Notes: a model not told the origin generated them from the letters alone. DNA of 32,170 nucleotides from a bacterium (GCA_023130215.1 JAGMAN010000030.1:1-32170), one strand, 5' to 3'. Shown: positions 2,832 to 31,896, numbered from the stretch's first letter. Made by a program: numbers and translations.

Positions 2832-3512
2832 TCATTTCTTTTTGAAGAGGTGAATGAGCAGCAGACCAGTTAGAAAACCTCCGATGTGGGCGGACCAGGC
2901 TACGGCGCTCATCTCCTTGGGGACAGTATGGGCATACCAGAACTGTAGAGCAATCCACAGTCCAAGGAAGATGAGAGCCGGGAGACGGATGAAGCGGGGG
3001 AAGATCCAGATAAAGAATAGACAGAGTATTCTGGCTCGGGGGAAGAGTAAAAGGTAAGCTCCCATAATTCCAGCGATAGCTCCACTGGCTCCAATCAGGG
3101 GCACCGGTGAACTGGGGTCAGTGGCAATATGGGTTAAGGTAGCCACTAATCCGCAGATGGGATAAAACAGTATAAACCGCAGATGCCCCATCCTGTCCTC
3201 AATGTTCGGCCCGAAGATCCACAGGTAAAGCATATTCCCAATAATATGGAGGAATGAGCCGTGAAGAAACATACAGGTAATCAGGGTAGCTAAGGTGGGC
3301 AGAATAATCCATCTCTCAGCCCCGCGGTATATAATCAATTTAAATGGTTTGGAGGTAATCCGGGAGGCAACTGCTCCAAGCTCTCCAGTGAAGTTGTGCT
3401 CCTGAGCTACCGGGGAAAGCTGATAGGCGAAGACAAGGGCATTGGCTAAAATTAACAATATGGTTATTAAAGGGAAAGTGCGGATAAGATTATTCGACTT
3501 GAGCGGTATCAT
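2832..3512 (-). CDS. Rhomboid-family intramembrane serine protease
   Basis: 226-aa polytopic membrane protein with HGSFLHIIGNMLYLWIFG (H..xN), GASGAIAGIMGA (GxSG catalytic Ser) and AHIGGFLTG (catalytic His). Confidence 0.85.
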   Translation of the reverse strand: MIPLKSNNLIRTFPLITILLILANALVFAYQLSPVAQEHNFTGELGAVASRITSKPFKLIIYRGAERWIILPTLATLITCMFLHGSFLHIIGNMLYLWIFGPNIEDRMGHLRFILFYPICGLVATLTHIATDPSSPVPLIGASGAIAGIMGAYLLLFPRARILCLFFIWIFPRFIRLPALIFLGLWIALQFWYAHTVPKEMSAVAWSAHIGGFLTGLLLIHLFKKK

Positions 3513-13778: not shown

Positions 13779-14963
13779 GTGACTTTGAAAATAGTGATTG
13801 TGGCTGGGGGGACGGGAGGGCATCTATTCCCTGGCTTGGTCATAGCTGAGAAGCTGAAGCAGGGGGAAGTAGGATGCGCCATTACCTTCATCGGGAGGAG
13901 GAGAGGTTTGGAAGCCGAGACTGTGCCCAGGGAAGGATTTGCATATCTTAATATATTGGGCGAGGGATGGTTGGGGAAATCTCCGGGAAGGCTTCTTTCA
14001 TCTGTGATAAAGACCCTCTTGGGATTTTTCCAATCTATCTATATCTTGTTAAGGCTTCGGCCGAATGTCGTCGTGGGAATGGGGGGATATCTATCCGGAC
14101 CATTCGTCTTGGCAGCCTCTCTCCTTGCCAGGCTGTCACGAAACCCGTTCCAGCCAAGGCGGCACTTTCACGGCGTCCTATTTCACACCTTGATCCATGA
14201 GCAAAACCTGATGCCGGGTATTACCAATCGCATCCTGAGCAGGTTTGTTAATGAAGTCAATGTAAGTTTTGCTGAGTCAATGCCGTTTTTCCCAAATGGA
14301 AAAGCAGTCTTTACCGGCAATCCTGTTCGCGGTGAAATCGTCCGGAGTCAAAAAAGGAAGAGTGAAAGTGCAAAGACGATATTAGTAATGGGAGGAAGTC
14401 GAGGGGCACATCGGATAAATGTATCTATGTTGGAGGCGGTTAATTACTTGACACGTAAGAGTGCTGCCTTTAGGGCTGTCCGCAGGACGTCCTTTAGGGC
14501 TGCAAGCGAAGAAAAGGTGGGGTCTTATAGTGTAATTCACTTAAGCGGCAGGGAAGATTATCAACTTGTGGTGGAGACCTATAAAAAGGCTGGGGTAGAA
14601 GCAGTGGTCTATCCATTCCTTCACCGGATGGAAGAGGCATACAGTCAGGCTGACCTGGTCATCTGCCGGGCTGGTGCCACTACCTTAGCTGAAGTTACTG
14701 CCTGTGGGCTGCCGGCTATTCTTATCCCTTACCCATGGGCTACCCACCATCATCAGGAGCAAAATGCCCGCTGGCTGGAAGGCAGTGGGGCAGCAGTGAT
14801 AATAGAGGACTGGGAGTTAACCGGGGAGTGCTTAGCCGGGGCCATTTTGAACTTATTGGCCGAGGAGGGGAAACTCTCCCGGATGGCTGAGAACAGCCGT
14901 CGGTTAGGTAGACCGAAAGCGGCTGAAAAAGTGGTGGAGAGAATCCTGCGCCTGGCAAGTTAG
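13779..14963 (+). CDS. murG: UDP-GlcNAc:lipid I GlcNAc transferase MurG (carries two in-frame insertions)
   Basis: GTG start. GT28 hallmarks are AGGTGGHLFPG, GMGGYLSGP, HEQN and CRAGATTLAEV..GLPAILIPYP. It is 394 aa; E. coli MurG is about 355 aa. Confidence 0.9.
   Translation: MTLKIVIVAGGTGGHLFPGLVIAEKLKQGEVGCAITFIGRRRGLEAETVPREGFAYLNILGEGWLGKSPGRLLSSVIKTLLGFFQSIYILLRLRPNVVVGMGGYLSGPFVLAASLLARLSRNPFQPRRHFHGVLFHTLIHEQNLMPGITNRILSRFVNEVNVSFAESMPFFPNGKAVFTGNPVRGEIVRSQKRKSESAKTILVMGGSRGAHRINVSMLEAVNYLTRKSAAFRAVRRTSFRAASEEKVGSYSVIHLSGREDYQLVVETYKKAGVEAVVYPFLHRMEEAYSQADLVICRAGATTLAEVTACGLPAILIPYPWATHHHQEQNARWLEGSGAAVIIEDWELTGECLAGAILNLLAEEGKLSRMAENSRRLGRPKAAEKVVERILRLAS
14130..14183 (+). other. 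In-frame 54-nt (18-aa, RLSRNPFQPRRHFHGVLF) extra segment in MurG just before the HEQN motif
   Basis: By-eye alignment with E. coli MurG (..[16 protein letters not shown]) against ..LAASLLA[RLSRNPFQPRRHFHGVLF]HTLIHEQN. The boundaries are approximate. Confidence 0.6.
14451..14510 (+). repeat. 60-nt dispersed repeat, copy A (in frame inside murG, encodes TRKSAAFRAVRRTSFRAASE)
   Basis: ACACGTAAGAGTGCTGCCTTTAGGGCTGTCCGCAGGACGTCCTTTAGGGCTGCAAGCGAA. It is nearly identical to 17267..17326 and 23330..23389. It contains the 12-mer CCTTTAGGGCTG twice and the palindrome GGACGTCC. Confidence 0.95.
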
Positions 14964-14990
14964 CTCGGCTATCGCCTCGCAACTTACTAT

Positions 14991-15019
14991 CGTATGGGAA
15001 ATTTATAATTTCCTATACG
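14991..15019 (+). other. Inverted repeat / hairpin downstream of murG (11-bp stem with one G-U pair, 7-nt loop)
   Basis: CGTATGGGAAA-tttataa-TTTCCTATACG. No T-tract follows, so it is not a canonical intrinsic terminator. Confidence 0.3.
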
Positions 15020-15042
15020 GCAAGAAAATGTTAAATACGATG

Positions 15043-15056
15043 AGGCAGTACTGCCT
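15043..15056 (+). promoter_or_regulatory. Perfect 14-bp palindrome AGGCAGTACTGCCT, 20 nt upstream of the first cassette gene (possible operator or junction site)
   Basis: The sequence is self-complementary. A 10/11 match, ATAGGCAGCAC, occurs at the other cassette boundary (19214..19224). Confidence 0.25.
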
Positions 15057-15075
15057 ATGGCTGTATTGATGAATC

Positions 15076-16122
15076 ATGATCAGGCATAAAAAGAATCCAC
15101 TTATTACCCCACACATGGTCGCACCGACTGTGCCCGAGCTTGAAGTAATGGGAGCTTTCAATGCGGGGGCAACTGTTTACCGGGACCAGGTTATACTGCT
15201 TGTGCGAATTTCCGAGCGATGCAAGGTAGAGCCAGGGGGCATCGGTGTTCCACTTTACCGTTTCGAAGATAGCAGGAGCAGACTTGAGATCGCCCGTTTC
15301 AAGCATGGCGATCCTGACGTTCAACTTAAGGATACTCGTGGTGTTGTATATAAGGGCATTGATTATCTCTCGACGCTTAGCACAATCCGTGTCGCCAGAA
15401 GTGCTGACGGGATTAATTTTAGCGTTGACGCTCAGCCGCTTCTGTATCCCTGTACGCCGAGTGAGCAGTACGGGTGCGAGGATGCGCGAGTAGTGAAGAT
15501 CGAAGGCGAGTATTACATTAACTACACAGCAATATCCCGAGACGGGTGGGCCACAGCGCTGTGTACTACGCAGGATTTCAAATCCGTTTTTAGGAAAGGT
15601 ATTATCTTCTATCCGCCGAACAAGGACGTTTGCCTCTTTCCGGAAAAAATCCGAGGAAGGTACTGGGCGCTACACAGGCCGCACAACGAAGGTTTCGGCA
15701 AGCCATCAATATGGATTTCATCATCGCCTAATCTTCTTGACTGGGGAGAACATCAGTGCCTGATCCGCCCGCGGAACAACGAGTGGGAACGGATAAAGAT
15801 AGGGGGTGGCGCCGCTCCCATAAAGACAGACAAGGGTTGGCTCGAGATATGTCATGGCAAAGGCGACAATTCTGTGTACTACCTGTTCACGCTCCTGCTT
15901 GACCTGGAAGATCCAGCGCGGGTTGTCGCAAGAGGCGAGAAACCGTTTCTGGCTCCTGAAGAGGATTATGAAACCAGTGGGTTCTTCCCCAACATCGTTT
16001 TCTCGAACGGGCTTGTTGAGCGCCCGAATGGAGAGATCTACCTCTACTACGGTGCGTGCGACGAAACTACGAATCTGATTATAACCAGCGTTGACGAGTT
16101 GCTGGCAGACTTGAATACGTAA
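15076..16122 (+). CDS. GH130-family protein (PF04041-like; predicted beta-mannoside phosphorylase/glycosidase), paralogue 1
   Basis: 348 aa. The family blocks GCEDARV, NKDVCLFPEKIRGRYWALHRP, GGGAAPIKTDKGWLEICHG, LLLDLEDPARV, PNIVFSNG and YYGACD align with the two downstream paralogues. There is no signal peptide. Confidence 0.75.
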   Translation: MIRHKKNPLITPHMVAPTVPELEVMGAFNAGATVYRDQVILLVRISERCKVEPGGIGVPLYRFEDSRSRLEIARFKHGDPDVQLKDTRGVVYKGIDYLSTLSTIRVARSADGINFSVDAQPLLYPCTPSEQYGCEDARVVKIEGEYYINYTAISRDGWATALCTTQDFKSVFRKGIIFYPPNKDVCLFPEKIRGRYWALHRPHNEGFGKPSIWISSSPNLLDWGEHQCLIRPRNNEWERIKIGGGAAPIKTDKGWLEICHGKGDNSVYYLFTLLLDLEDPARVVARGEKPFLAPEEDYETSGFFPNIVFSNGLVERPNGEIYLYYGACDETTNLIITSVDELLADLNT

Positions 16123-16137
16123 TGTGAGGGTGGAAAG

Positions 16138-17265
16138 ATGAGAATAGGAATAGTATCAACATATCCGCCAATCGAGTGCGGGATAGGGACTTACTCTCAG
16201 TACTTGACAGGCGCATTGAGGCAGATAGGAAATGAAGTATATATTTTCAGTCAGTACGGGGGTAAAGGTGATTATGTTTTCGGCACCTACTCACCGCAGG
16301 AGGAGAGCATCGCGGCGGAGATTTTCGAGATGGCTTCTAAGATGACGCCGGACGTGCTTCATGTTCAGCATGAGTTTGGTCTTTACGGCCACCCCAGCAG
16401 GAAACAGGTTGTGGAGCTGGTCCTTATGTCCCGCCGTGTCACCGATCTCCCGACAGTGGTGACGTTTCACACCGTGCGTGAGAAGTTTATACCCGAGCAG
16501 GAGCAGGTCGTCAGTTTAGTAATGCAGGAAAGCAGTGCGATTATTGTTCACGAAGAGTATTACAAGAAAATACTGACTGAACACTTCGGGCATGCTGACA
16601 AGATTCATGTAATTCCGCATGGCGTACGCGAAATGGAGGAAGTTACTGACGCGCGCAAGAAAATAGGTGTTGAAGGAAAGAAGGTTATTCTCCTGTGCGG
16701 GTACCTGCGTGAGACTAAACGTTTCGACAGGGTTGTGAAAATTTTTCCGAAGGTAGCCAAAGCTGTGGATGACGCCGTTCTGGTTATTGCGTCTAAGTCG
16801 CGCAGTGTGGATCATCCGGAGTATCAGAGAAAGCTGTACAGGATGATTGAAGAATCACCCGCGACTGACAGGATTATGGTTCTTCATGGGCAGTTTCCGC
16901 AGCACATCTTTGACACGATAGTGTCCGCGGCACACGTTGTGCCCTTCCCCTATGAAGCGGGCGGGCAAAGCGGTACTATGGCGCATTGCTTTGCGTTCAG
17001 GAAACCGGTGGTTACTTCCGACCTCAGGTCTTTTAAGAATTGGATTGAGGAGTCACAGGGCGGTCTTGTGGCCAGTTCCGACGAAGAACTCGCAGATCAC
17101 ATCATCAGAATATTGACGGACGATAAGTTGAGCGAGTCTCTGCGCAGAAACATTGACAGGTTTGTCAGCAAAAAGGTTTCGTGGAGGATCGTGGCCGGCC
17201 AGCATATTGATGTTTATGAGAAATACGCGTGGCGGCCCACGCCCAGGTCGAGGTATTTCGGGTAG
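16138..17265 (+). CDS. GT4-family (GT-B fold, group 1) glycosyltransferase
   Basis: 375 aa. N-terminus MRIGIVSTYPPIECGIGTY and a C-terminal nucleotide-sugar-binding region (PYEAGGQSGTMAHCFAFRKPVVTSD). SD GAGGGTGGA precedes the ATG. No TM segment or signal peptide. Confidence 0.8.
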   Translation: MRIGIVSTYPPIECGIGTYSQYLTGALRQIGNEVYIFSQYGGKGDYVFGTYSPQEESIAAEIFEMASKMTPDVLHVQHEFGLYGHPSRKQVVELVLMSRRVTDLPTVVTFHTVREKFIPEQEQVVSLVMQESSAIIVHEEYYKKILTEHFGHADKIHVIPHGVREMEEVTDARKKIGVEGKKVILLCGYLRETKRFDRVVKIFPKVAKAVDDAVLVIASKSRSVDHPEYQRKLYRMIEESPATDRIMVLHGQFPQHIFDTIVSAAHVVPFPYEAGGQSGTMAHCFAFRKPVVTSDLRSFKNWIEESQGGLVASSDEELADHIIRILTDDKLSESLRRNIDRFVSKKVSWRIVAGQHIDVYEKYAWRPTPRSRYFG

Positions 17266-17266
17266 A

Positions 17267-17326
17267 ACATGTCCGAGTGCTGCCTTTAGGGCTGTCCGCA
17301 GGACGTCCTTTAGGGCTGCAAGCGGA
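17267..17326 (+). repeat. 60-nt dispersed repeat, copy B (intergenic, between the GT4 gene and GH130 paralogue 2)
   Basis: ACATGTCCGAGTGCTGCCTTTAGGGCTGTCCGCAGGACGTCCTTTAGGGCTGCAAGCGGA. It starts 1 nt after the GT4 stop codon and ends 10 nt before ATG 17337. Confidence 0.95.
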
Positions 17327-17336
17327 GGAACTTCAG

Positions 17337-18281
17337 ATGTTCAGAAGAAAAATGACACAAAGAGATGTTGTTCACAGGTGGGAGGGTAATCCTCTTATCA
17401 GGCTTCAAGACTTGGATTTTCAGTGCGCAGATGTATGGTCTGCAGGTGTGGCGTCTTACCAGGATGACATCATTCTTCTTGTTACCATCGAGCATCTTGC
17501 GGGATTTCAGTCCATACATCTTGCCGGGAGTGATGAGAAGGGCCGTTTCCATGTGAAGGAGGAACCATTCATTGGCGCCCGCAGGGATCCTCTTGAATTT
17601 GGACTGCATGAGTCGCGTGGCGTCATGGATGCCAGGGTGACCTTGATAAACGGAGTTTATTACATTGTCTACCTCGCCAGCGGTGAGCATGGCTTCCGGC
17701 TGGGACTGGCAACAACGAGGGATTTTGTCAAAGTCGAGCGACATGGCCTTATTTCAGAGCCTGATACGAAAACCGGTGCGCTCTTTCCCGAAAAGATCAA
17801 GGGACGCTATGCGAGACTATGCCGTCCTCGGGAAGGGAACAGCATCTGGGTCAGTTACAGTCATGATCTTATCTACTGGGGTGACAGTGAACTTCTTCTG
17901 TCACCGAGAGCAGGCTTCTGGGACTCATCACGCGTTGGGGCAGGTCCCCCTCCGATGAAAATTCCCCAGGGGTGGCTGTTGATATATTACGGAGTCAAGG
18001 AGACCCAGGCCGGCCCTCTGTTCCGGCTGGGCGCGGCTATCCTAAGCGGAGAAGACCCTGTAAAGATTGTCAGCCGCTCAAATATCCCAATCCTGTCACC
18101 GCGTGAGGACTATGAGCGTATCGGCGACTTGAGTAATATCGTGTTTTCTACCGGCGCATTGGTCAAGAACAACAACGAAATGGATATCATTTACAGCGGA
18201 GCCGACAGTTGCATTTGTCTCGGAAGTACAACCGTTGAGGAAATTGTGGAAACCTGTTCTATGAGCAAGGAGGAATTCTAA
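17337..18281 (+). CDS. GH130-family protein, paralogue 2 (start trimmed relative to ORF-track 17229)
   Basis: MFRRKMTQRDVVHRWEGNPLI aligns with MMPRRPMGRDLLHRWEGNPAI of paralogue 3. GGAGG lies at 17324..17328, 8 nt upstream. The upstream part of the track ORF only reads through the repeat and the GT4 3' end. Confidence 0.8.
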   Translation: MFRRKMTQRDVVHRWEGNPLIRLQDLDFQCADVWSAGVASYQDDIILLVTIEHLAGFQSIHLAGSDEKGRFHVKEEPFIGARRDPLEFGLHESRGVMDARVTLINGVYYIVYLASGEHGFRLGLATTRDFVKVERHGLISEPDTKTGALFPEKIKGRYARLCRPREGNSIWVSYSHDLIYWGDSELLLSPRAGFWDSSRVGAGPPPMKIPQGWLLIYYGVKETQAGPLFRLGAAILSGEDPVKIVSRSNIPILSPREDYERIGDLSNIVFSTGALVKNNNEMDIIYSGADSCICLGSTTVEEIVETCSMSKEEF

Positions 18282-19214
18282 GTGATGCCCCGACGGCCTA
18301 TGGGCAGAGACCTGTTACATCGATGGGAGGGCAATCCGGCCATCAGGATGGAGGATATTCCTTTCCGGGCCAACACGGTGTTCAACGGCACGCCGATAGT
18401 GACTAAGGAAGGCGTGTTACTCCTGTTAAGGGTTGAGGGACAGCAGGGATATTCCATGTTCGCCCTGGCACGAAGCCGGGATGGTCTGCGCTTCAAGGTT
18501 GATGAAAGGCCGGTAATGATGCCGGATAAAAGCGGACCTTTCGCAGAGTACGAATTGAGAGGCATAGAAGATCCACGCGCGACGTTCCTGGAAAACACCT
18601 GCTATATAGTCTACACGGCTGTAGGTAAATGCGGTCCGCGAATTGCCATCGCGAAAACCAGAAATTATGTCAACTATGAGCGCATCGGGCTTGTTTCCGA
18701 GCCGGGGAACAAAGACGGTGTCCTGTTTCCCAGGAAGATTAAGAGCAGGTACGCCAGACTTGACAGACCGATAGGTGGCGGTCGCGGCAGCATCTGGATA
18801 TCGTATTCGCCAGACCTGCTAAATTGGGGTGATTCTGAAATTGTAATGACGCCTCGGACCGGTTACTGGGATGACTTTCGCATCGGCGCCTCTGTGCCTC
18901 CGATAGAGACCTCTCAGGGCTGGTTGGAAGTTTATCACGGGGTCAAGTTAACCTCTGCCGGCGCGATTTACCGCATCGGAACCGCCCTGCTTGATCTTGA
19001 TGACCCATCGAAGGTCATCAAGCGCAGTTCTACGCCAGTCCTGTCGCCGCGTGAGCACTATGAGCGGATCGGCGACGTTCCGAACGTGTGCTTTGCCTGT
19101 GGCGCCGTAGTTGATCCCGACGGCAGGATGAAAATTTACTACGGAGCGGCGGACACGTCCATTTGCGTGGCGCTCTGCACGCTGGAGCAGGTTCTCACGG
19201 AGAGTTTCGATTAA
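18282..19214 (+). CDS. GH130-family protein, paralogue 3
   Basis: 310 aa with GIEDPRATF, NKDGVLFPRKIKSRYARLDRP, GWLEVYHGV, YRIGTALLDLDDP, PNVCFACG and YYGAADT. AAGGAGG lies at 18267..18273. The start is GTG 18282 or ATG 18285. Confidence 0.8.
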   Translation: MMPRRPMGRDLLHRWEGNPAIRMEDIPFRANTVFNGTPIVTKEGVLLLLRVEGQQGYSMFALARSRDGLRFKVDERPVMMPDKSGPFAEYELRGIEDPRATFLENTCYIVYTAVGKCGPRIAIAKTRNYVNYERIGLVSEPGNKDGVLFPRKIKSRYARLDRPIGGGRGSIWISYSPDLLNWGDSEIVMTPRTGYWDDFRIGASVPPIETSQGWLEVYHGVKLTSAGAIYRIGTALLDLDDPSKVIKRSSTPVLSPREHYERIGDVPNVCFACGAVVDPDGRMKIYYGAADTSICVALCTLEQVLTESFD

Positions 19215-19252
19215 TAGGCAGCACAGAACTTTAGTTAACCAAGGGACTATAC

Positions 19253-20635
19253 ATGTTAGAGGGGATTAAGAACATTCATTTCATTGGTATTGGCGGAGCG
19301 GGAATGAGCGCTCTGGCCCAGGTTTTACTGGAACTGGGCTATAGGGTGAGTGGTTCAGACATAAAGATGAACCTGATTACCAAACGCCTTGAGGAGCGAG
19401 GAGCAGTGGTTCACCACGGCCACGGGGAAGAGAACTTAGCTCAAGCCGATTTAGTGATATTCTCCTCAGCCATTCCTTCTATCAATCCCGAACTGAAAGC
19501 AGCCCGCCTGCGGGGTCTTTCCGTCCTCTCCCGGGGAGAGATGTTAGCTGAGCTGATGAGGGAGAGGAATGGAATTGCTGTGGCCGGAACGCATGGGAAG
19601 ACCACCACCACTTCCATGGTCGCCTCTATCCTCTCCGAAGCTGCGCTCGATCCAACTATAGTTATTGGAGGAGAGCTAAATGACATTGGAGGAAATGCCA
19701 GACTTGGGCATAGCTCGTACTTAGTAGCTGAGGCTGATGAGAGCGATGGCTCTTTCCTGAAACTATCTCCTGCCTTGGCCGTAGTCACCAACATCGAAGC
19801 TGATCACCTGGAGTATTATCATAACCTGCCTGCTATCATTGAGGCTTTTAGAAGGTTTGTCGGAAGGGTCTCCGATGACGGATGTCTAGTCCTATCTGAC
19901 CATCCAAATGTTAGGAAGATAACAGGGAAAAACGAAAAACGAAAAACGAAAAACGTTAGGATATTGACCTATGGTATTAAGCAGGGAGTTGACCTGGTAG
20001 CTAAGGAAGTGAAGTTCCGGGGATTGGGATCAGAATATGAGGTCTTTCATCGAGGGGAGAGGTTAGGCAAGATCAAGCTCGGGGTGCCGGGCAGACACAA
20101 TATCTACAATTCGCTTGCGGCCATTGGGGTTGCATTAGAGGTAGGGGTTGGGTTTGAGAAAATAAGCTCTGCTCTGACTAATTTCCATGGGGTCCAGAGG
20201 CGCTTTGAGATAAGGGGTGAAGTTAAGGACATTGTGGTAGTGGATGACTATGCTCATCATCCCACTGAGATAAGAGCTACTCTAAAGGCTGCCCGGCAGT
20301 GGAGAGCGAAGAGAATAATCGGAATATTCCAGCCGCACCGCTATACCAGGACAAAATTCTTAAGAAAGGATTTCTCCTCGGCCTTTGAGGAAGCAGACTT
20401 CCTGGTCATAACTGAGATCTATTCGGCTGGTGAGGAACCTCTGCCCGGGGTAAGCGGGCGGGACATATACGAGGCGGTTCGAGACATTGGCCAGGAAAAC
20501 GTCGAGTTCATTCCAGACAAATCAGAGATTGCTGACCGGGTAATGAACATCCTTCAGCCAGGAGATACGGTGATTACTATGGGAGCAGGGGATATTGATA
20601 CGGTAGCCGGGGAAATAGTGCAAAGGTTAAGGTGA
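19253..20635 (+). CDS. murC: UDP-MurNAc:L-alanine ligase
   Basis: N-terminal GIGGAGMSALA, P-loop GTHGKTTTTS and GRHNIYNSLAAIG. Confidence 0.95.
   Translation: MLEGIKNIHFIGIGGAGMSALAQVLLELGYRVSGSDIKMNLITKRLEERGAVVHHGHGEENLAQADLVIFSSAIPSINPELKAARLRGLSVLSRGEMLAELMRERNGIAVAGTHGKTTTTSMVASILSEAALDPTIVIGGELNDIGGNARLGHSSYLVAEADESDGSFLKLSPALAVVTNIEADHLEYYHNLPAIIEAFRRFVGRVSDDGCLVLSDHPNVRKITGKNEKRKTKNVRILTYGIKQGVDLVAKEVKFRGLGSEYEVFHRGERLGKIKLGVPGRHNIYNSLAAIGVALEVGVGFEKISSALTNFHGVQRRFEIRGEVKDIVVVDDYAHHPTEIRATLKAARQWRAKRIIGIFQPHRYTRTKFLRKDFSSAFEEADFLVITEIYSAGEEPLPGVSGRDIYEAVRDIGQENVEFIPDKSEIADRVMNILQPGDTVITMGAGDIDTVAGEIVQRLR
19928..19955 (+). repeat. Perfect heptanucleotide tandem repeat (AAAAACG)x4 inside murC
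   Basis: aaaaacg aaaaacg aaaaacg aaaaacg is read as K-N-E-K-R-K-T-K-N. The unit length is not a multiple of 3. Confidence 0.95.
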
Positions 20636-22544: not shown

Positions 22545-23392
22545 GAGGAAATGGTCAGATAAGGACGAGGAAGAAGCTCGGGGAACGCAGAAGAGAGAAA
22601 AGGAAGAAGCTCTTTAAGGGATTGGGTAAGTTAACTCTAATCCTTTCCCTTATAGCTGGACTTGCTTTCGCCGGGAAGAAGGCAGAAGATTTCCTTCTCA
22701 CCTCCCATTTCTTCCGGATTAAGGAAGTAAATTTCAAGGGAGCTACCTTCCTTAGGCAGGAGGTCTTGGAGAAATTAGCCAATATCAAGCTGGGTAAGAA
22801 TATATTCCGGGTCAATTTAAGGGCAATCCAGGAGCGTCTGGAAAGGAATCCCCGGGTTAGAGAGGCTATTATCTCTCGAGCTTTCCCCAATGCGGTCACA
22901 GTTAATATTAGGGAGAGGGAAGCAGTTGCTCTCTTTGAAAGCGGCGGCGAAGCCTATCCGGTTGATAAGGAAGGAGTGGTGTTGCCCCGCCCTGGGCGGG
23001 CTAATCCTTTCTCCCACTCTCTTCCCCTCATTAAGGGAGTGAAGGGGTATCGGCTGAAGGTGGGAGAGAAGCTTCAGTGTCCGAAATTGACGGTGGCCCT
23101 GGAGCTATTAGCTGCTTTAGCCTCATCCGGTCTAAAAGTAAATTCCTATGGTATAAATTTAGGAGGGCCGGAGTTAATTCTGGCCAATAAGAGAACAAAG
23201 GTCTTATTGGGAGAGCTAAGTAAAGAGAAATGGATGAGAGAGTTAAAACTCATTCTGTCTGACCTAACCGAGAGGGAAGAGGAAGCAGAATATATAGATT
23301 TGAGGTTTTCCAGACCAGTGGTGAAGCTTACACGTCCGAGTGCTGCCTTTAGGGCTGTCCACAGGACGTCCTTTAGGACTGCAAGCGAATGA
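22541..23392 (+). CDS. ftsQ: Cell division protein FtsQ/DivIB (C-terminal 20 aa encoded by repeat copy C)
   Basis: Basic N-terminus, one TM helix (LGKLTLILSLIAGLAFAG) and a POTRA-like segment (FRIKEVNFKGATFL...). It sits between ddl and ftsA, with ATGA overlaps at both ends. Confidence 0.8.
   Translation: MRGNGQIRTRKKLGERRREKRKKLFKGLGKLTLILSLIAGLAFAGKKAEDFLLTSHFFRIKEVNFKGATFLRQEVLEKLANIKLGKNIFRVNLRAIQERLERNPRVREAIISRAFPNAVTVNIREREAVALFESGGEAYPVDKEGVVLPRPGRANPFSHSLPLIKGVKGYRLKVGEKLQCPKLTVALELLAALASSGLKVNSYGINLGGPELILANKRTKVLLGELSKEKWMRELKLILSDLTEREEEAEYIDLRFSRPVVKLTRPSAAFRAVHRTSFRTASE
23330..23389 (+). repeat. 60-nt dispersed repeat, copy C (in frame at the 3' end of ftsQ, encodes TRPSAAFRAVHRTSFRTASE)
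   Basis: ACACGTCCGAGTGCTGCCTTTAGGGCTGTCCACAGGACGTCCTTTAGGACTGCAAGCGAA. Its last base is the A of the ftsA ATG. Confidence 0.95.
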
Positions 23393-24627
23393 AAAAGCAA
23401 GAATTTGTGATTGGATTGGACATTGGCACCACCAAGATCTGTGCTATGATCGGCCGTCATAACGAGGATGGGGATGTAGAGATAACGGGAACCGGAGTTA
23501 CTCCCTCCAAGGGTCTTCGGAAAGGAGTGGTAGTAAATTTAGAGAGTACCATTGACTCAGTGGAAAGAGCTATTGAGAAAGCAGAAGAAGAAGCAGGAAT
23601 CGAGGTGGTCAAAGTCTTCACTGGAATAGCCGGAGGGCACATCAGGGGCTTTAACAGCCGAGGGGTGGTGGGTATCTCCCGGACCTCAAGGGAGATTAAG
23701 TGCCGGGATGTAGAGAGGGTAATTGATGCCGGCAAAGCGGTGGCTATTCCCCTGGACCAAGAGGTCATTCACGTTATTCCTCAGGAGTTCACGGTTGATG
23801 ACCAGGATGGGGTGAAGAATCCGGTAGGGATGTGGGCCAACCGCTTAGAGGCAGAGGTTCATATCGTCACCGGGGCGGTCACTTCTGCCCAGAATATCAT
23901 TAAGTCGGTGAACCGGGCTGGATTTGAGGTAGAGGACATCGTCCTGGGACCCTTAGCCTCAGCAGAAGCAGTGCTCTCTACTGAGGAGAAGCACTCAGGA
24001 GTAGTCCTTATTGATATTGGGGGAGGAACTACCGATATGGTCATTTTCTCCAGGGGAAGTATTCGGCACAGTGAGGTTTTAGCCTTAGGAGGGGACCATG
24101 TGACTAACGATATTTCGGTCGGGTTACGCACCTCCCCTCAGCAGGCAGAGGATGTGAAAAAAGATTATGGTTGGGCTACCCCCTCTTTAATCAAGAGGGA
24201 AGAGTTTTTCCACTACCCGGGGGTGGGAGGTAGGCGTGGAGGCAAGGTCTCTCTCTCCCAGCTCTGTGAAATCATTGAGCCAAGAATTGAGGAGCTATTT
24301 TCCTTGGTTAACGCTGACATAGATAGGACTGGCCTGGCCCGCTCCATCTCGGCAGGAGTGGTCTTAACCGGAGGTGCATCCCTGCTTCGCGGTCTTCCGC
24401 AGATGGCTGAGCAGATATTGGATCTTCCGCTCAGGCTTGGAAAACCCAATGGGAGTGTAAAAGGATTAGGTAAAGATAAGGATAGTCCCATCTATGCCAC
24501 GGCAGTAGGGCTGGTCCAATATGGGCTGGCCTATAGAAGGCAGAAGAAGATGGCTCGCTTTAAGGGGCGCAACCTCTTCAGCCAGGTAGCACTCAGGATG
24601 AAGGAATGGTTGGGAGAATTCTTTTAA
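23389..24627 (+). CDS. ftsA: Cell division protein FtsA (actin-like ATPase)
   Basis: GLDIGTTKICAM, DIGGGTTDM, GGASLLRGL and a C-terminal amphipathic helix (LFSQVALRMKEWLGEFF). Confidence 0.95.
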   Translation: MKKQEFVIGLDIGTTKICAMIGRHNEDGDVEITGTGVTPSKGLRKGVVVNLESTIDSVERAIEKAEEEAGIEVVKVFTGIAGGHIRGFNSRGVVGISRTSREIKCRDVERVIDAGKAVAIPLDQEVIHVIPQEFTVDDQDGVKNPVGMWANRLEAEVHIVTGAVTSAQNIIKSVNRAGFEVEDIVLGPLASAEAVLSTEEKHSGVVLIDIGGGTTDMVIFSRGSIRHSEVLALGGDHVTNDISVGLRTSPQQAEDVKKDYGWATPSLIKREEFFHYPGVGGRRGGKVSLSQLCEIIEPRIEELFSLVNADIDRTGLARSISAGVVLTGGASLLRGLPQMAEQILDLPLRLGKPNGSVKGLGKDKDSPIYATAVGLVQYGLAYRRQKKMARFKGRNLFSQVALRMKEWLGEFF

Positions 24628-28335: not shown

Positions 28336-30090
28336 TTATCCTTTTTTCTCTGCCAGCTCTGACTCTAAGAATCCTTCTAATTTCCTGCTTCGCTTTGGAT
28401 GGCGAAGTTTCCCCAGGGCCTTGGCTTCAATCTGGCGCACTCTCTCCCTGGTCACTTCGAAGATTGTCCCCACCTCTTCCAGGGTGCGTGGGTAACTATC
28501 TCCAATGCCAAACCGAAGCCGCAGCACCTTCTGTTCCCTCTCCGTTAAAGTGGCTAGCACCTTCTCCATCTGCTCCTTGAGCATGAGGAAGGCAGTAGCA
28601 CTGGCCGGACAGATTGCTTCTTTATCCTCAATGAAGTCGCCGAAGTGGCTGTCTCCTTCATCTCCAACCGGGGTCTCTAAGGATATTGGCTCCTGGGCAA
28701 TCTTCAGTATTCCTCGGACCTTATCCGATGCCATCTTCATCACCTCAGCTAACTCTTCGGCCGCCGGTTCCCGTCCATATTCCTGGACAAGATAGCGGGA
28801 AGCTCTAATCAACTTATTGATGGTCTCAATCATATGAACAGGAATGCGAATGGTTCGGGCCTGGTCGGCAATGGCCCGGGTTATAGCCTGTCTAATCCAC
28901 CAGGTAGCATAGGTGGAGAACTTATATCCTCGACGATACTCAAACTTATCTACTGCTCTCATCAGGCCGATGTTTCCCTCCTGAATGAGGTCAAGGAAGG
29001 ATAAGCCCCGGCTAGTATAGCGCTTGGCGATTGACACTACCAGGCGGAGATTGGCTTCCACAAGCATCTTCTTGGCTTTATCTAACTTCCTTTCCTCTTC
29101 CTTTGCCAAACGGAGGAATCTGCGAATTTCATCCTTGGTTGTCCTTCCTTCCCTCTGCATCCTTCGAATCTTTTTCTGCCCGCTTCTAATTTCTCGGTAG
29201 AAACTGCTAATCTCCTCCCGCCCGAGGCCGCTCTGCCGGACTGCCTTCCTGGCCTCCCGGGGACCCTTAGCTACTCTTCGAGCTAATTGGCCAATCTCCT
29301 TCATTTTTAGACCAGCTTTTCTTTCCACTTTTTTAATATGGCTTTCTGCTTTCTCCATCTTCGCCAACAAATCCTTGAGCTGGGAGATAACTCTGCTCAT
29401 TTCTTCTTGGCTCAGATTAAATTCCTTCTCGGCCTGGATGATTTTCTCCTTCGCTCTCGCCCTCTTTGCTGAAAGCTTCTCCCTTTCCTTAAGGGGCAGA
29501 GTCTTTTTTTTCAACTGTCTCTTGAGGCTGGATAGTTCAGTTTCCCCCTTCTTCAACCTATCCATAAGCCTGGGAAGCTTTCTCAAGAGTCCTTTAGTAG
29601 CCTGAGGCGACCTCTCTTCACCTACCCCCTTTAATTTAGGCCCTCCTTCGCTTGCAGCACTCTTACGTGTCAATATCTTTTGCCCCAGGTTCCTCAGCTC
29701 CTTAGCGGTGAAGTCAGCATCCAGGACCAGGTTCCTTAAGTTTTCCTTAGCTCCTTCTATCTCCTTAGCCAATCGTATCTCCTCTTCCCGGGCCAATAGG
29801 GGCACCTGTCCCATCTCCCTGAGATACATTCTCACCGGGTCTTCTACTCTAACCTCTTCCGGGAGGACCTTCTCCTCTTTCACCTTAGCTGCTTTTTTCT
29901 TCTTATAGGATTCCTCGGTGGGGACAATCTCTATATCCATATCCCCAAGCATGACCAGGATGTTATCGATCTCCTCCGAGGAGATGACATCCTGAGGGAG
30001 AATGTCGTTCACCTCAGCGTAGGTGAGGTGACCTTTCTCCTTTCCCTTCTCAATGAGCTTCTGGACCTCTTCTCTTCTTTCCACTTTCAA
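28336..30090 (-). CDS. rpoD: Primary (housekeeping) RNA polymerase sigma-70 factor
   Basis: Region 1.1/1.2 and a long K/E/R-rich non-conserved region. Region 2 is [41 protein letters not shown] and region 4.2 is [24 protein letters not shown]. The track start is TTG 30090; GTG 30084 has better spacing from GGGGTGAG. Confidence 0.95.
29647..29670 (-). repeat. 24-nt internally deleted derivative of the 60-nt repeat, copy D (in frame in rpoD, encodes TRKSAASE)
   Basis: The - strand reads ttgACACGTAAGAGTGCTGCAAGCGAAg. This equals copy A, including its TTG and G flanks, minus the central 36 nt bounded by the GCTGC direct repeats. Confidence 0.85.
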
Positions 30091-31896
30091 TTACTCACCC
30101 CTTTTCTTCACCAGGAGTTGCTGATACTCAAGCTGTAGATTCTTTACTAAGTCTTTCTGCCCTTGCCCCTCAGCCTCTCTTATTCTCTCAGTAAGCTCCC
30201 TCTTTTTGCTTTTCTTCCCTTCCTCTTTTATTCTGTTTATGCAATCCTCTATCGCTTTCGTCTTATCCTGGTAGGGGCTCTGCTCCATCACTAACCGGGA
30301 GACTGTGGCAGACAACTCTTCATCCTGAAGATAATTTATTACCTCCCCTATCCGGACTGGTTTACTTTCTTCCTTCTTTAAGTGAAAGATGACTTTTGCC
30401 AGTTGGCTGTATTTTTCATCTCGAAAATCGCTTGCTCTTAGTTTCTTCTTCACTTCCCCAACCAGCTCTTCTTCCTGAAGCATTATCTGGAGAAGGTCTC
30501 TCTCTGCTCGCGCTGAGCCGGCCTCCGGGGAAGGGATAGGTGAAGGAGTGCGGTCTTTCCCGCCGGGGCGAATTCGGAGGGCAGGTCTCCTCAGCTTCTG
30601 AAGTTCAGTCAGTATCCATTCCTCCCCTGAAGTAATTCTTCCCCTCAAATCCAGCTCCTCAGCCAACCTCTTAATGTAGCCTTTCTTCTCAATAGCATTT
30701 TGGAACTTATCAATAGTGGGAAGCATTCTCTTAACTATCTCGGCTGGACCTTCCACGGAATCTCTATTATATCGGGTGCTAAGAAGGTTTAGCTTATAAT
30801 CGAATAATCCTTCAGCCTCTTCTATCTTCCTCCGAAAAACCTCTTTTCCTTCCCGGCGAACGAACACATCTGGGTCCTGGCCAGGAGGCAGGGAGACTAC
30901 CTTAACATGCATTCCTTCCTCAACTAGCAGGTCCAGTCCCCTCAGGGTAGCTTCAACTCCAGCCGTATCACTATCGTAGACCATGACAACATCCTGTCCA
31001 TATCTGCGAAGAAGCCGGACATGGCCCGAGGTAAGAGCAGTCCCCAGGGAGGCAACCACATTACCGATTCCTCCTTGAGCGGGAGTAATAGCATCTAAAT
31101 AACCTTCTACCACAACCACCTTTCCTTCTCTTAAGATATGTTCCTTGGCCAGGTTTAATCCATATAGATTAGCGCTCTTATGATAGATAGCGGTCTCGGG
31201 AGAATTCATATACTTGGGGTCCTTCCCGTCCAGGGTTCTTCCCCCGAAACCAAGCACCTTGCCAGTCACGTTGAAAATGGGGAAGATGATACGATTGCGA
31301 AAGCGGTCATAGAAACCTTCTCCGTCCTTACGACTGAGAGCTAATCCAGCTTCCTCTAAGATAGAGGGGGAAAAACCTCGTTTGCCTGTTTCCCTCAACA
31401 AGCTGTCCCAGGAGGTGGATGCATAGCCCAGGCTGAACCTGCCAATTGTCTCCTTAGAGAGCCCTCTCCCCTCTAGTAAGTATCTTAGGGCTTTTGCCCC
31501 TTCCTGGCTCTTGAGGCAGCTCTGGAAGAATCTAACAGCCAGCTCATTTAGCTCAAATAGCCTCAGGTTCTTCCCTCCATCCCCTTCGGGTCCGGTCATC
31601 TCAGGCAGGCTAACCCCTGATTGGTCAGCTAACATTTTCAGGGCCTCCAGGAAAGTCAGGCTTTCGTGCTTCATCAGGAAGGAGAATACATTCCCTCCCA
31701 CCTGGCAGCCAAAGCAGTTAAAGATCTGCCTCTCGGGGCTGACCATGAAGGAAGGAGTCTTCTCCTGATGGAAGGGACAGAGAGCCTTAAAGTTCTTTCC
31801 AGCCGGCTTCAAAGGAAGATATTGGGAGATGACCTCAACGATATCTGATCGATTCTGGACCTCCTGAATTATCGAATCGGGAATACGATTAGACAT
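30091..31896 (-). CDS. dnaG: DNA primase
   Basis: CHC2 zinc finger CPFHQEKTPSFMVSPERQIFNCFGC and a TOPRIM domain (VVVEGYLD, YDSDTAG). It lies directly upstream of rpoD. Confidence 0.95.
   Translation of the reverse strand: MSNRIPDSIIQEVQNRSDIVEVISQYLPLKPAGKNFKALCPFHQEKTPSFMVSPERQIFNCFGCQVGGNVFSFLMKHESLTFLEALKMLADQSGVSLPEMTGPEGDGGKNLRLFELNELAVRFFQSCLKSQEGAKALRYLLEGRGLSKETIGRFSLGYASTSWDSLLRETGKRGFSPSILEEAGLALSRKDGEGFYDRFRNRIIFPIFNVTGKVLGFGGRTLDGKDPKYMNSPETAIYHKSANLYGLNLAKEHILREGKVVVVEGYLDAITPAQGGIGNVVASLGTALTSGHVRLLRRYGQDVVMVYDSDTAGVEATLRGLDLLVEEGMHVKVVSLPPGQDPDVFVRREGKEVFRRKIEEAEGLFDYKLNLLSTRYNRDSVEGPAEIVKRMLPTIDKFQNAIEKKGYIKRLAEELDLRGRITSGEEWILTELQKLRRPALRIRPGGKDRTPSPIPSPEAGSARAERDLLQIMLQEEELVGEVKKKLRASDFRDEKYSQLAKVIFHLKKEESKPVRIGEVINYLQDEELSATVSRLVMEQSPYQDKTKAIEDCINRIKEEGKKSKKRELTERIREAEGQGQKDLVKNLQLEYQQLLVKKRGE

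Follow-up and report, generated by a model that had tools for sequence, protein, structure and literature searches.

The locus analysed here raises the question of why four genes for glycan-active enzymes lie between murG and murC, where they came from and what they might do there. The window, i.e. the whole 32,170-nt stretch of DNA that was analysed, belongs to an uncultured NPL-UPA2-related cold-seep bacterium. Its dcw gene order is canonical, the cassette excepted, through ftsI-murE-murF-mraY-murD-ftsW-murG-murC-murB-ddl-ftsQ-ftsA-ftsZ, with the genes upstream of murE (mraZ/mraW region) assigned from position and length alone. We lean towards the view that the cassette is an accessory module, gained horizontally at the ATGTTA of the murG/murC junction and dedicated to cytoplasmic beta-mannoside synthesis and phosphorolysis, whose position in the dcw cluster is accidental.

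Layout and authenticity of the cassette

The native host genes murG (13779..14963, + strand; Pfam GT28 N- and C-domains) and murC (19253..20635, + strand; Pfam Mur ligase domains) are separated by a 4.3-kb interval with four + strand genes in the order GH130A-GT4-GH130B-GH130C. Pfam assigns FtsW, MurG, GH130, GT4, GH130, GH130, MurC, MurB and Ddl in succession, every gene on the + strand, and hence confirms the arrangement of three GH130 genes and one GT4 gene described in an earlier note on this DNA. GH130A (15076..16122, +) encodes 348 aa and matches PF04041 at 2e-49, and GT4 (16138..17265, +) encodes a retaining glycosyltransferase of 375 aa with Glycos_transf_1 and Glyco_transf_4 domains. 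GH130B (17337..18281, +; 314 aa, PF04041), which most likely starts at ATG 17337 rather than at GTG 17229, is directly abutted by GH130C (18282..19214, +; 310 aa). The 112-nt gap between murG and GH130A, already remarked upon as unusually long, is the longest spacer of the operon. No transmembrane segment or signal-peptide-like N-terminus was detected by hydropathy in the four cassette proteins (maximum 19-residue Kyte-Doolittle mean at most 1.5), in agreement with the cytoplasmic location claimed previously, and the locus indeed holds no transporter, regulator or integrase. Integrase and transposase domains are absent among the ORFs of cassette and flanks, and inverted repeats of 30 nt or more were not found. 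The cassette has no terminator or promoter signal of its own above chance; therefore it is most likely transcribed through from murG into murC.

A foreign contig erroneously joined into the dcw cluster could be suspected from the metagenomic source, the abrupt composition change at the cassette borders and the several other assemblies that end at or near the left junction. This reading is already effectively refuted, and we give it next to no weight. Over both junctions, the NCBI contig (32,170 nt) is identical to an ENA re-assembly of the same sample (49,884 nt), three contigs of other samples or runs span the GH130C-murC junction, and a scaffold from a third sample (L021) carries the cassette and downstream dcw genes at 99 % identity to the window, cassette and flanks having diverged equally. 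The cassette is not a chimera, as it recurs in independent assemblies and in a strain of 99 % identity. The cassette also contains a host-specific repeat and the left gap a relic of the host junction, both detailed below, and the earlier claim that the cassette is resident thus stands.

A repeat search revealed three 64-nt copies of the host repeat, 91-92 % identical. Copy A (14451..14514, +) lies within murG and is translated in frame, copy B (17267..17330, +) occupies the GT4-GH130B spacer, and the third copy is located at 23330..23393. With GH130B starting at ATG 17337, copy B is intergenic, and its 3' end provides a GGAGGA Shine-Dalgarno motif ahead of that ATG. The repeat previously reported inside the cassette is hence real and present in three copies, of which the cassette copy is placed between genes. 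At the copy A site, MurG of the closest genome, L010, shares the flanking sequence but has a different filling. Copy B is missing from the GT4-GH130B spacer in L011 and L012, two other genomes with GT4-GH130B-GH130C, and the 64-nt repeat is found nowhere in L005, a member of a distant clade.

Origin of the insert at the murG/murC junction

The cassette differs from its surroundings in CpG content, with an observed/expected ratio (o/e) of 1.03 compared to 0.57 for the host, and gene by gene of 0.83-1.14 in the four cassette genes compared to 0.47-0.71 in all 24 flanking genes. The dinucleotide distance delta* is 0.15-0.20 within the cassette and 0.03-0.07 outside. Both measures shift sharply at the cassette borders, so that a composition scan does reveal a discontinuity, although overall GC is flat across cassette and flanks. 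The CpG excess is confined to synonymous and codon-boundary positions, as evident from NCG codons (o/e 1.16 in the cassette vs 0.46 in the host) and codon-boundary CpG (1.01 vs 0.51). CGN arginine codons have the same CpG o/e of 0.90 in cassette and host (share of arginine codons 0.56 and 0.47, respectively). Of the codon preferences earlier judged by eye, the NCG excess thus holds and the CGN-arginine excess does not. The CpG content of the window cassette matches that of the copies in the CpG-neutral genomes L011 and L012.

The closest genome, L010 (NPL-UPA2 MAG-914), has a complete dcw cluster in which murG overlaps murC, and lacks the cassette. The flanks of the window are 85-95 % identical to it at the nucleotide level right up to the junction, with 85-91 % over the last 450 nt of murG (80 % aa identity for MurG overall) and 87-90 % for murC from its first codon; murC is only ~70 % identical to that of L005. 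Within the left gap, positions 15020..15033 (+) hold GCAAGAAAATGTTA, a relic of the ancestral murG-stop/murC-start overlap, all 14 nt of which match the overlap of L010 (3693-3706). This relic and the ATGTTAG at 19253 supply the 6-nt ATGTTA direct repeat around the insert, which is bounded by this repeat only. The 3' end of murG has been changed by the insertion history: the present stop codon is contained in a 59-nt segment (14960..15018, +) with GGCAAG direct repeats on either side (14954-14959 and 15019-15024), which is probably a secondary small insertion. Folding predicts a 14-bp hairpin at 14990-15020 (dG -15.3 kcal/mol); a U-tract does not follow it, and a terminator scan of the + strand returned nothing there. 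The right junction (19215..19252, +) carries the motif GAACTTTA..TTAACCAAGGG..ACATG, common to the window and the dcw copy of L005, whose right junction is homologous, and absent 3' of GH130C in non-dcw loci.

The composition break, the restriction of the CpG excess to synonymous and codon-boundary sites, the lack of the cassette in L010 and the overlap relic in the gap together argue for a foreign origin of the cassette. This agrees with the horizontal acquisition proposed earlier, as does the presence of the same module in unrelated contexts of other phyla. We propose that transfer into the host lineage would have occurred around or after the split from the nearest sequenced relative, with the insert landing exactly on the ATGTTA of the overlapping murG stop and murC start and the flanking dcw genes staying native. 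The dcw position would then be an accident of the insertion site at a natural sub-cluster boundary, giving growth-linked expression.

A distant clade complicates this picture. In L005, L013 and L020, representing at least two organisms, the order is cassette-murC-murB-ddl-ftsQAZ, the dcw-located cassettes group together in a four-point check on GT4 identities, and the ratio of cassette to housekeeping divergence is ~0.5, similar within and between clades. Both the same-site cassette with its homologous junction and this ratio conflict with a simple recent transfer and fit an old vertical insertion, i.e. a cassette that entered the cluster before the clade split and was lost in the MAG-914 lineage through recombination at ATGTTA; the direct repeat would permit exact excision regenerating the L010 overlap, and the junction motif shared with L005 but not with non-dcw copies is likewise as expected. 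However, CpG sites are ~6-fold hypermutable when strain is compared with strain, and an old insert is therefore expected to be CpG-depleted. The window copy is undepleted at NCG codons and codon boundaries (1.16 and 1.01), with host and L010 at ~0.5, the copies of L005 and L013 are only partly ameliorated, and the 14-nt relic, now non-coding, is still identical to L010. We accordingly regard the old vertical insertion as improbable, roughly a one-in-several prospect, and keep horizontal gain as the preferred reading. Synteny in relatives, proposed earlier as a check, thus gives a divided answer: murG-murC is intact in the nearest relative, and in the second, distant clade the site is occupied by the cassette as in the window. 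The alternative then envisaged, an ancestral and widespread part of the cluster with a known role, is borne out to the extent of this second clade, and no known role accompanies it.

Multigene insertions have been described between concatenated ribosomal operons (PMC6735719), and fragmentation of dcw clusters at murG|murC in Neisseriaceae marks a natural break point (PMC9395523). The window resembles such genomic islets and operon-internal insertions in having foreign genes at a sub-cluster boundary with the flanking genes intact. It differs from them in that the insert lacks an integrase or IS element, with only a 6-nt direct repeat, and in that two divergent clades have an insert at this site.

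The GH130 and GT4 enzymes

The three GH130 paralogues score 162-200 bits against PF04041 (cut-off 26), and each matches 18 solved GH130 structures. All three, like all orthologues, retain the catalytic Asp (D104 in Uhgb_MP, D137 in Uhgb_MS), which is at least 90 % conserved in 66 GH130B-type sequences. GH130A is a putative beta-1,2-mannoside phosphorylase of the Lin0857/Uhgb_MS-like (GH130_4-like) type, matching Lin0857 at 4.5e-84 and Uhgb_MS at 4.6e-75 in the PDB and aligning with them end to end, with R88, E136, D137, N-K-D, K184, R202 and H261 conserved. Its identity to these enzymes is nonetheless only 38-42 %, and P206, N211 and R242 of Uhgb_MS are replaced by E, P and K, as seen by inspection of the HMMER alignment. 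The family to which GH130C belongs is very conserved, at 70-91 % identity between phyla, and has the beta-1,2-type residues E-D, N-K-D, R and H. GH130A and GH130C both keep the basic phosphate-binding residues K, R and H (positions R150/K184, R168/R202 and H231/H261), follow the pattern of phosphorylases as opposed to GH130_3 hydrolases, i.e. no Glu replacements and no signal peptide, and have E and K at the +1 subsite (Glu136/Lys184, Uhgb_MS numbering), the beta-1,2 determinants of the GH130_4 and GH130_6 type (PMC12814180, PMC4599007).

GH130B has M or L plus K at the +1 subsite, i.e. half of the beta-1,2 pair, and among the phosphate ligands K and R are kept without Glu replacements and His is changed to Tyr, which is invariant in 66/66 homologues. 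The M/L-D and T-K-T/A motifs, the shortest L2 loop and the His-to-Tyr change place GH130B in an uncharacterised GH130 subfamily; Li et al. noted a His-to-Tyr variant in an uncharacterised meta-node. The L2 loops of all three paralogues are shorter than those of TM1225 and Uhgb_MP. Against the equivalog models, scores for A, B and C stay far below the cut-offs, with 381, 208 and 244 bits for NF050092 (beta-1,2-mannobiose phosphorylase, cut-off 550) and 211, 178 and 215 bits for NF052550 (cut-off 450). The beta-1,4 motifs Y-D or N-R-N (R150) of GH130_1/GH130_2 occur in none of the three. A Man-GlcNAc (beta-1,4) activity, as had been suggested, is consequently not supported, given Glu/Lys in place of the Tyr/Arg determinants.

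The two Pfam domains of GT4 score 44 and 56 bits, above their cut-offs, and its AF2 model (pLDDT 89) adopts a GT-B fold with TM-scores of 0.74-0.81 to GT4 structures. The nearest folds are GlgM, MshA, PimA, BshA and SPS at 14-19 % identity, and SPS is the best PDB profile match (7e-17). No equivalog or close homologue assigns donor or acceptor, the best NCBIfam match reaching 76 bits vs a cut-off of 400. Some sources label GT4 homologues as 'involved in cell wall biosynthesis' or 'diacylglycerol glucosyltransferase', and weak NCBIfam matches to glycolipid synthases were seen.

Predicted function and distribution of the module

Our best reading of the active-site residues and gene associations is an accessory cytoplasmic module for beta-mannoside synthesis and phosphorolysis. 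The retaining GT4 would glycosylate a small or lipid acceptor, yielding a primer, to which GH130B, with its altered +1 subsite, lost phosphate-binding His and minimal L2 loop, would add (or otherwise handle) the first beta-mannose, possibly using GDP-Man rather than Man-1-P. With their complete beta-1,2 sites, GH130C and GH130A would both extend and phosphorolyse beta-1,2-mannosides that differ in length, interconverting these with alpha-Man-1-P. If so, the cassette would represent an intracellular mannoside reserve, or a system for solute synthesis and recycling.

The parallel raised earlier is the mannogen cycle of Leishmania, in which the GT108 proteins MTP1-7 are paralogous GDP-Man transferases and transferase/phosphorylases (PMC10913872, PMC12814180). 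Common to both are a cytoplasmic array of paralogous five-bladed-propeller mannoside enzymes without a transporter, and phosphate ligands and loop L2 that separate synthase-like from phosphorylase-like members. The window proteins, however, belong to GH130 (Pfam PF04041) and not to GT108, they come with a GT4 partner, and GH130B is a synthase by prediction only. The beta-1,2-type active-site residues, short L2 loops and conserved GT4 partner are hence compatible with mannogen-like synthesis and recycling; the Man-GlcNAc option is not supported. The authors of PMC12814180 consider that GT activity in GH130 may be without physiological relevance.

Alternatively, the module may be catabolic. Beta-mannosides derived from fungal, plant or microbial glycans would be imported and phosphorolysed to Man-1-P, with GT4 using the resulting GDP-Man elsewhere. 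All biochemically characterised bacterial GH130 enzymes have been given catabolic or salvage roles (PMC4264767, PMC7660257, PMC4599007), and the GH130B-GH130C pair of L006 and that of L023 have SSF symporters nearby, with a GH2 gene located upstream in L014. The salvage locus of Thermoanaerobacter sp. X-514 (Teth514_1785-1796) combines two GH130 beta-1,2-mannoside phosphorylases with a GT4 and a Man-1-P guanylyltransferase (PMC4264767), and is similar to the window in that several cytoplasmic GH130 paralogues of beta-1,2-mannoside type, differing in chain-length preference in that locus, adjoin a GT4. Its hallmarks, i.e. ABC transporter, GH5 and ManC, are absent from the window locus, which instead has three GH130 genes, one of them a Lin0857-like long form and another a member of the His-to-Tyr subfamily; GH130B and GH130C are also distant from Teth514_1788 and Teth514_1789 (E 1e-39 to 1e-52). 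Moreover, no transporter, secreted glycosidase or regulator lies inside any module locus examined, GT4 is a constant partner of the module, and one NPL-UPA2 genome of ~1 Mb encodes very few organic transporters (PMC6305446). We therefore hold a catabolic role to be a possible but unlikely explanation, at about one chance in four. Far less credible is an envelope glycoconjugate coupled to lipid II or peptidoglycan, e.g. a mannosylated GlcNAc-bearing precursor. It would explain the place in the dcw cluster, the shared strand and tight spacing between murG and murC and the same site in two clades, and could draw on the homologue labels and glycolipid-synthase matches of GT4. Yet the closest relative has a complete dcw cluster without the cassette, other phyla have the module at places outside dcw, the beta-1,4 Man-GlcNAc determinants and membrane segments are missing, and fragmenting dcw clusters have a natural break point at murG|murC. 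The dcw position is consequently not evidence of a peptidoglycan role, and the coupling to lipid II synthesis suggested earlier is not upheld.

GH130A-GT4-GH130B-GH130C is a conserved unit in several phyla, located outside dcw except in the NPL-UPA2-like lineage. The complete set sits outside dcw in L012. L011 has GT4-GH130B-GH130C at the end of a contig, L014 and L015 have GH130A-GT4-GH130, and a Fibrobacteria MAG (L016) has the module with its gene order permuted. GH130B and GH130C occur together on at least 29 contigs, and GT4 occurs with either of them on at least 16. GT4 adjoins a GH130A-type gene at every locus showing both, and GH130C always abuts a GH130B-type gene. The GH130B-GH130C pair alone is widespread, and in a Phycisphaerales genome it is located among PFK, PK and PFK genes.

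Gene order and residence of the cassette

A dcw cluster of canonical order runs along the plus strand of the window, comprising the mraZ/mraW region, ftsI, murE, murF, mraY, murD, ftsW, murG, murC, murB, ddl, ftsQ, ftsA and ftsZ, where the genes upstream of murE were identified from position and length alone. Four genes of the same strand separate murG (13779-14963) from murC (19253-20635), namely GH130A (15076-16122, 348 residues), the retaining glycosyltransferase GT4 (16138-17265, 375 residues), GH130B (17337-18281, a likely gene of 314 residues) and GH130C (18282-19214, 310 residues), all scoring above the Pfam threshold. The mechanical open reading frame of GH130B starts at GTG 17229, and ATG 17337 is the likely start because orthologues comprise 314-320 residues and because GGAGGA precedes this alternative codon. 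The longest spacer of the operon, 112 nt, separates murG from GH130A, and no hydrophobic segment or signal-peptide-like N-terminus is present in any of the four cassette proteins; in these respects the earlier note had described the locus correctly.

The window is a contig of a MAG recovered from a South China Sea cold seep, Site-F (PMC9357000). An ENA re-assembly made independently from this sample (49.9 kb) matches the window exactly over both junctions, and the cassette with its GH130C-murC junction recurs in contigs of another sample and of two Logan run assemblies. A scaffold from a third sample (L021) represents the same species at ~99 % nucleotide identity and has the cassette as well, with identities of 98.7-99.4 % for the cassette and 99.0-99.5 % for its flanks. 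In addition, one of the three window copies of a 64-nt host repeat (copy B) is located in the GT4-GH130B spacer, which in two loci carrying the module outside dcw (L011 and L012) is short and without the repeat. An assembly chimera is thus effectively excluded, and the cassette is resident, as had been argued from the internal repeat copy. Four independent assemblies end at or just within the left end of the cassette, with assembly L002 starting at window position 15019, L021 at 15063, and L005 and L013, from a distant clade, inside GH130A. These breaks could stem from graph branching between cassette-plus and cassette-minus genomes, or from cassette sequence common to co-occurring organisms.

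The host repeat belongs to a nested mini-repeat family. Its frame, ACACGTAAGAGTGCTGC…GCAAGCGAAG, is 'empty' in the window rpoD (29646-29670, minus strand) and in murC of the closest relative L010 (4378-4400), and is filled by a 32-nt palindromic unit (CTTTAGGGCTGTCCGCAGGACGTCCTTTAGGGCT) in the window murG (14451-14514), the GT4-GH130B spacer (17267-17330) and the 3' end of ftsQ (23330-23393), or by a different 36-nt unit in L010 murG (3186-3250). The element is translated in one and the same frame in murG and ftsQ (…TRKSAAFRAVRRTSFRAASEE…), resembling the Rickettsia RPEs, which are in-frame palindromic elements.

Insertion at the murG/murC overlap and its history

Presence or absence of the cassette within the lineage rests on few genomes, as a genome scan with the window MurG found a single relative, NPL-UPA2 MAG-914 (L010). 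Its housekeeping proteins are 77-88 % identical to those of the window, with FtsQ as an exception (64 %), the nucleotide identity of ftsW, murG and murC is 85-95 %, and L010 is CpG-depleted, as are the window flanks. In L010 murG overlaps murC (…GCAAGAAAATGTTAG…) and the cassette is absent. The window flanks are L010-like right to the insert borders; homologous replacement importing foreign dcw flanks was rejected, since no recombination tract was found in murG 3' or murC 5' of the window. The window murC begins ATGTTAG, and the left gap retains an exact 14-nt relic of the ancestral murG/murC overlap (GCAAGAAAATGTTA, 15020-15033), and therefore a 6-nt direct repeat, ATGTTA, borders the insert. 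A 59-nt segment separates the present murG stop from the relic; it is flanked by GGCAAG direct repeats (14954-15024, at the murG 3' end), provides the present stop 56 nt upstream of the original-stop relic and contains a 14-bp perfect-stem hairpin (14990-15020, dG -15.3 kcal/mol). This segment probably represents a later, small secondary insertion; no second copy was found in the window or the compared loci. An Rfam search of the window gave no match, i.e. repeat and hairpin correspond to no known RNA family.

While GC is flat (0.50-0.53 in the cassette vs 0.48-0.51), the observed/expected CpG ratio is 1.11, 1.11, 0.83 and 1.14 in the four cassette genes and stays within 0.47-0.71 in each of the 24 remaining ones. 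The symmetrised dinucleotide distance, delta*, is 0.15-0.20 in the cassette vs about 0.03-0.07 outside, with borders that coincide with the cassette ends. Host dinucleotides are strongly biased (CG 0.57, AC/GT 0.64, CC/GG 1.28, AG/CT 1.24), and those of the cassette are near 1.0 throughout; the skewed host signature holds for the whole window outside 15076-19214 and for L010. By codon position, CpG excess in the cassette vs the host is seen in NCG codons (1.16 vs 0.46) and at codon boundaries (1.01 vs 0.51), and CpG in CGN arginine codons is 0.90 in both, so that of the codon bias previously noticed by eye the NCG part stands and the arginine part does not. Between the two 99 %-identical strains, CpG positions differ ~6-fold more often than other positions (34/893 vs 74/11,784), which suggests active CpG-directed mutation in NPL-UPA2, e.g. 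cytosine methylation. The counts (8 changes in the cassette) were too small for polarising these strain-level changes to show directional loss. A second delta* bump (0.09-0.12) is present at 28500-30500 over rpoD, where CpG does not rise (0.47-0.51); the repetitive acidic region of the protein, not foreign DNA, probably accounts for this compositional shift.

The composition break at the cassette ends, the cassette-free L010 and the occurrence of the module outside dcw elsewhere support the horizontal origin suspected in the earlier note, and we conclude that the species acquired the cassette horizontally as an accessory module, which is now stably resident following a clean insertion at the murG/murC overlap. 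The same dcw site is occupied in three loci of a distant clade, L005 (GCA_964529935.1), L013 and L020 (the latter two with sample prefix BRAZ22-1, probably Lost City), in the arrangement GH130A(part)-GT4-GH130B-GH130C-murC-murB-ddl-ftsQAZ. As the L005 and L013 contigs begin within GH130A, the comparison with this clade covers the right junction; a metagenome scan with GH130A returned only 33-48 % relatives, of no use for the left one. Housekeeping proteins of the distant clade are only 44-77 % identical to those of the window, and the cassette proteins are 78-87 % identical.

A non-coding motif just upstream of murC (GAACTTTA…TTAACCAAGGG…ACATG) is common to the window and L005, recognisable in L013 and L020, and missing after GH130C where the module lies outside dcw. 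Together with cassette/housekeeping divergence ratios of ~0.5, both within the distant clade and between clades, this favours a single origin of the dcw-located cassette. The shared motif and constant ratio are also compatible with old vertical inheritance followed by loss in MAG-914. Against such an age, the window cassette cannot be told apart in composition from those of the CpG-neutral genomes L011 and L012, its counterparts in L005 and L013 are of intermediate composition, hence partly ameliorated, and CpG positions diverge at the ~6-fold elevated rate between strains. Because of these three observations we favour acquisition by the window lineage around or after the split from MAG-914, a timing that conflicts with the evidence for old inheritance. 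The donor would then be an unsampled organism in which the cassette already adjoined murC. The insertion site common to two divergent clades is one novel element of this work. The window insert is a datable, clean case of a foreign operon at a stop/start overlap within the essential dcw operon, with the ancestral junction visible as a relic.

In the distant clade the GH130C-murC spacer is expanded to 120-480 nt (L013 4311-4788, L020 2241-2624, L005 3845-3963) and contains local repeats, among them (CCGTCCTT)x3, a 55-nt duplication and GTGAACC/GGTTCAC hairpins, and the GT4-GH130B spacer is ~220 nt. Spacers that bear host repeats in the window have been independently colonised there.

Enzymes, predicted role and expression

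In whole-sequence comparison with the PDB, GH130C matches two beta-1,4 enzymes best, TM1225 and Uhgb_MP, which suggested membership of the beta-1,4 group; residue mapping ruled this out. GH130A and GH130C share the motifs Glu-Asp and Asn-Lys-Asp, which include the E136/K184 pair that is the beta-1,2 determinant (PMC12814180, PMC4599007), whereas Tyr-Asp and Asn-Arg-Asn are found in the beta-1,4 enzymes. GH130A and GH130C also keep the Arg and His phosphate ligands. GH130B-type proteins have Met/Leu-Asp, Thr-Lys-Thr/Ala and a Tyr, Y218 in GH130B, replacing the phosphate-site His, this Tyr being invariant in 66/66 sequences from several phyla. The L2 loop is shortest in the GH130B-type, followed by GH130C, and longest in beta-1,4 enzymes. 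By the published rules, GDP-Man can enter where the L2 loop is short, and phosphorylase activity weakens as phosphate contacts are lost; GH130B is thus predicted to be transferase-leaning, or to use a different acceptor. All three GH130 proteins fall far below the NCBIfam equivalog cut-offs and were for this reason not filed as known enzymes. The invariant-Tyr subfamily is a further novel element. Transferase activity was recently found in GH130, its physiological role being left open by the discoverers (PMC12814180), and the module and gene pair that include this large subfamily provide concrete candidates for such a role. The GT4 model is a confident GT-B fold (pLDDT 89), nearest to GlgM, MshA, PimA, BshA and SPS (14-19 % identity), which glycosylate small cytoplasmic or lipid acceptors; fold and profile searches yielded generic GT4 neighbours only and no donor or acceptor assignment.

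The cassette most likely serves to make and phosphorolyse beta-1,2-type mannosides in the cytoplasm. The Man-GlcNAc option raised initially is not supported, the beta-1,4 residues being absent from GH130A and GH130C, and neither is a role in lipid II chemistry. No paper linking GH130 with murG or murC was found in the literature searched. The premise that the position is extraordinary is weakened: in the fragmented dcw clusters of Neisseriaceae, 'ftsW, murG' and 'murC, ddl, ftsQ, ftsA, ftsZ' persist as sub-clusters (PMC9395523), and murG|murC is therefore a natural, tolerated break point. The cassette shows that dcw location need not imply a cell-wall function. A link to mannosylglucosylglycerate (MggA/MggS) was dropped, no paper in the literature searched connecting MggA/MggS with GH130.

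The right gap, between GH130C and murC, is 38 nt, and no plus-strand terminator was found in either this or the murG-GH130A gap. Promoter-like and terminator-like matches occurred at shuffle expectation, which speaks neither for nor against internal signals. Because the essential murC-ddl genes lie downstream, read-through transcription from murG through the cassette would be the simplest reading.

The module outside dcw and related systems

L012 has the complete GH130A-GT4-GH130B-GH130C module with non-dcw flanks, and in L011 a ClpB-like gene comes after GT4-GH130B-GH130C; the L011 genome agrees with the window cassette in GC (0.505) and CpG (about 1.0-1.2). The order is GH2-hyp-hyp-GH130A-GT4-GH130 in L014 and L015, and B-C-A-GT4 in a Fibrobacteria MAG (L016), where GT4 is only 50 % identical; Planctomycetota have just GH130B and GH130C, as an abutting pair. 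Matching contigs by exact length across the three homology tables placed B and C together on at least 29 contigs and GT4 with B or C on at least 16. In none of the examined loci does the module enclose a transporter, secreted glycosidase, regulator or nucleotide-sugar gene, and an NCBIfam search of the hypothetical neighbours in L014 and L016 gave no matches. Neither the four-gene module nor the B-C pair is described in the literature searched. The conserved module is also a novel element, and this work defines it as a widespread, transporter-less GH130/GT4 unit, alongside the tightly linked B-C pair.

The nearest described locus, a Thermoanaerobacter cluster of two GH130 genes, GT4, ManC, ABC and GH5, was read as GDP-Man salvage (PMC4264767); in comparison, the present module has a third, divergent GH130 and no transporter, GH5 or ManC. 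The closest functional analogy is the mannogen cycle of Leishmania, whose proteins belong to GT108. It is conceivable, if rather unlikely, that the module is a bacterial counterpart of this cycle, in which B-type proteins would act as dedicated beta-mannosyl transferases, C and A as phosphorylases and GT4 in priming, and Planctomycetota, Verrucomicrobiota, Fibrobacterota and NPL-UPA2 would thereby form a beta-1,2-mannoside reserve or solute inside their cells. If true, this would be the first physiological role for GH130 transferase activity, and the NPL-UPA2 module would be hard-wired into a growth-coupled dcw transcript.

PFK, PK and PFK surround the B-C pair of one complete Phycisphaerales genome, galactokinase-like GHMP sugar-1-kinases lie at most 5 kb from the pair in two Planctomycetota loci (L006 and L007), and SSF symporters lie within ~3 kb of it in L006 and a third such locus, L023. 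This context fits sugar-phosphate metabolism and does not separate a reserve cycle from salvage. Across these Planctomycetota regions (L023 8248-14699; L006 13906-17236; L007 4218-7820), the pair has glycolytic kinases, or GHMP kinases and a PfkB kinase, nearby.
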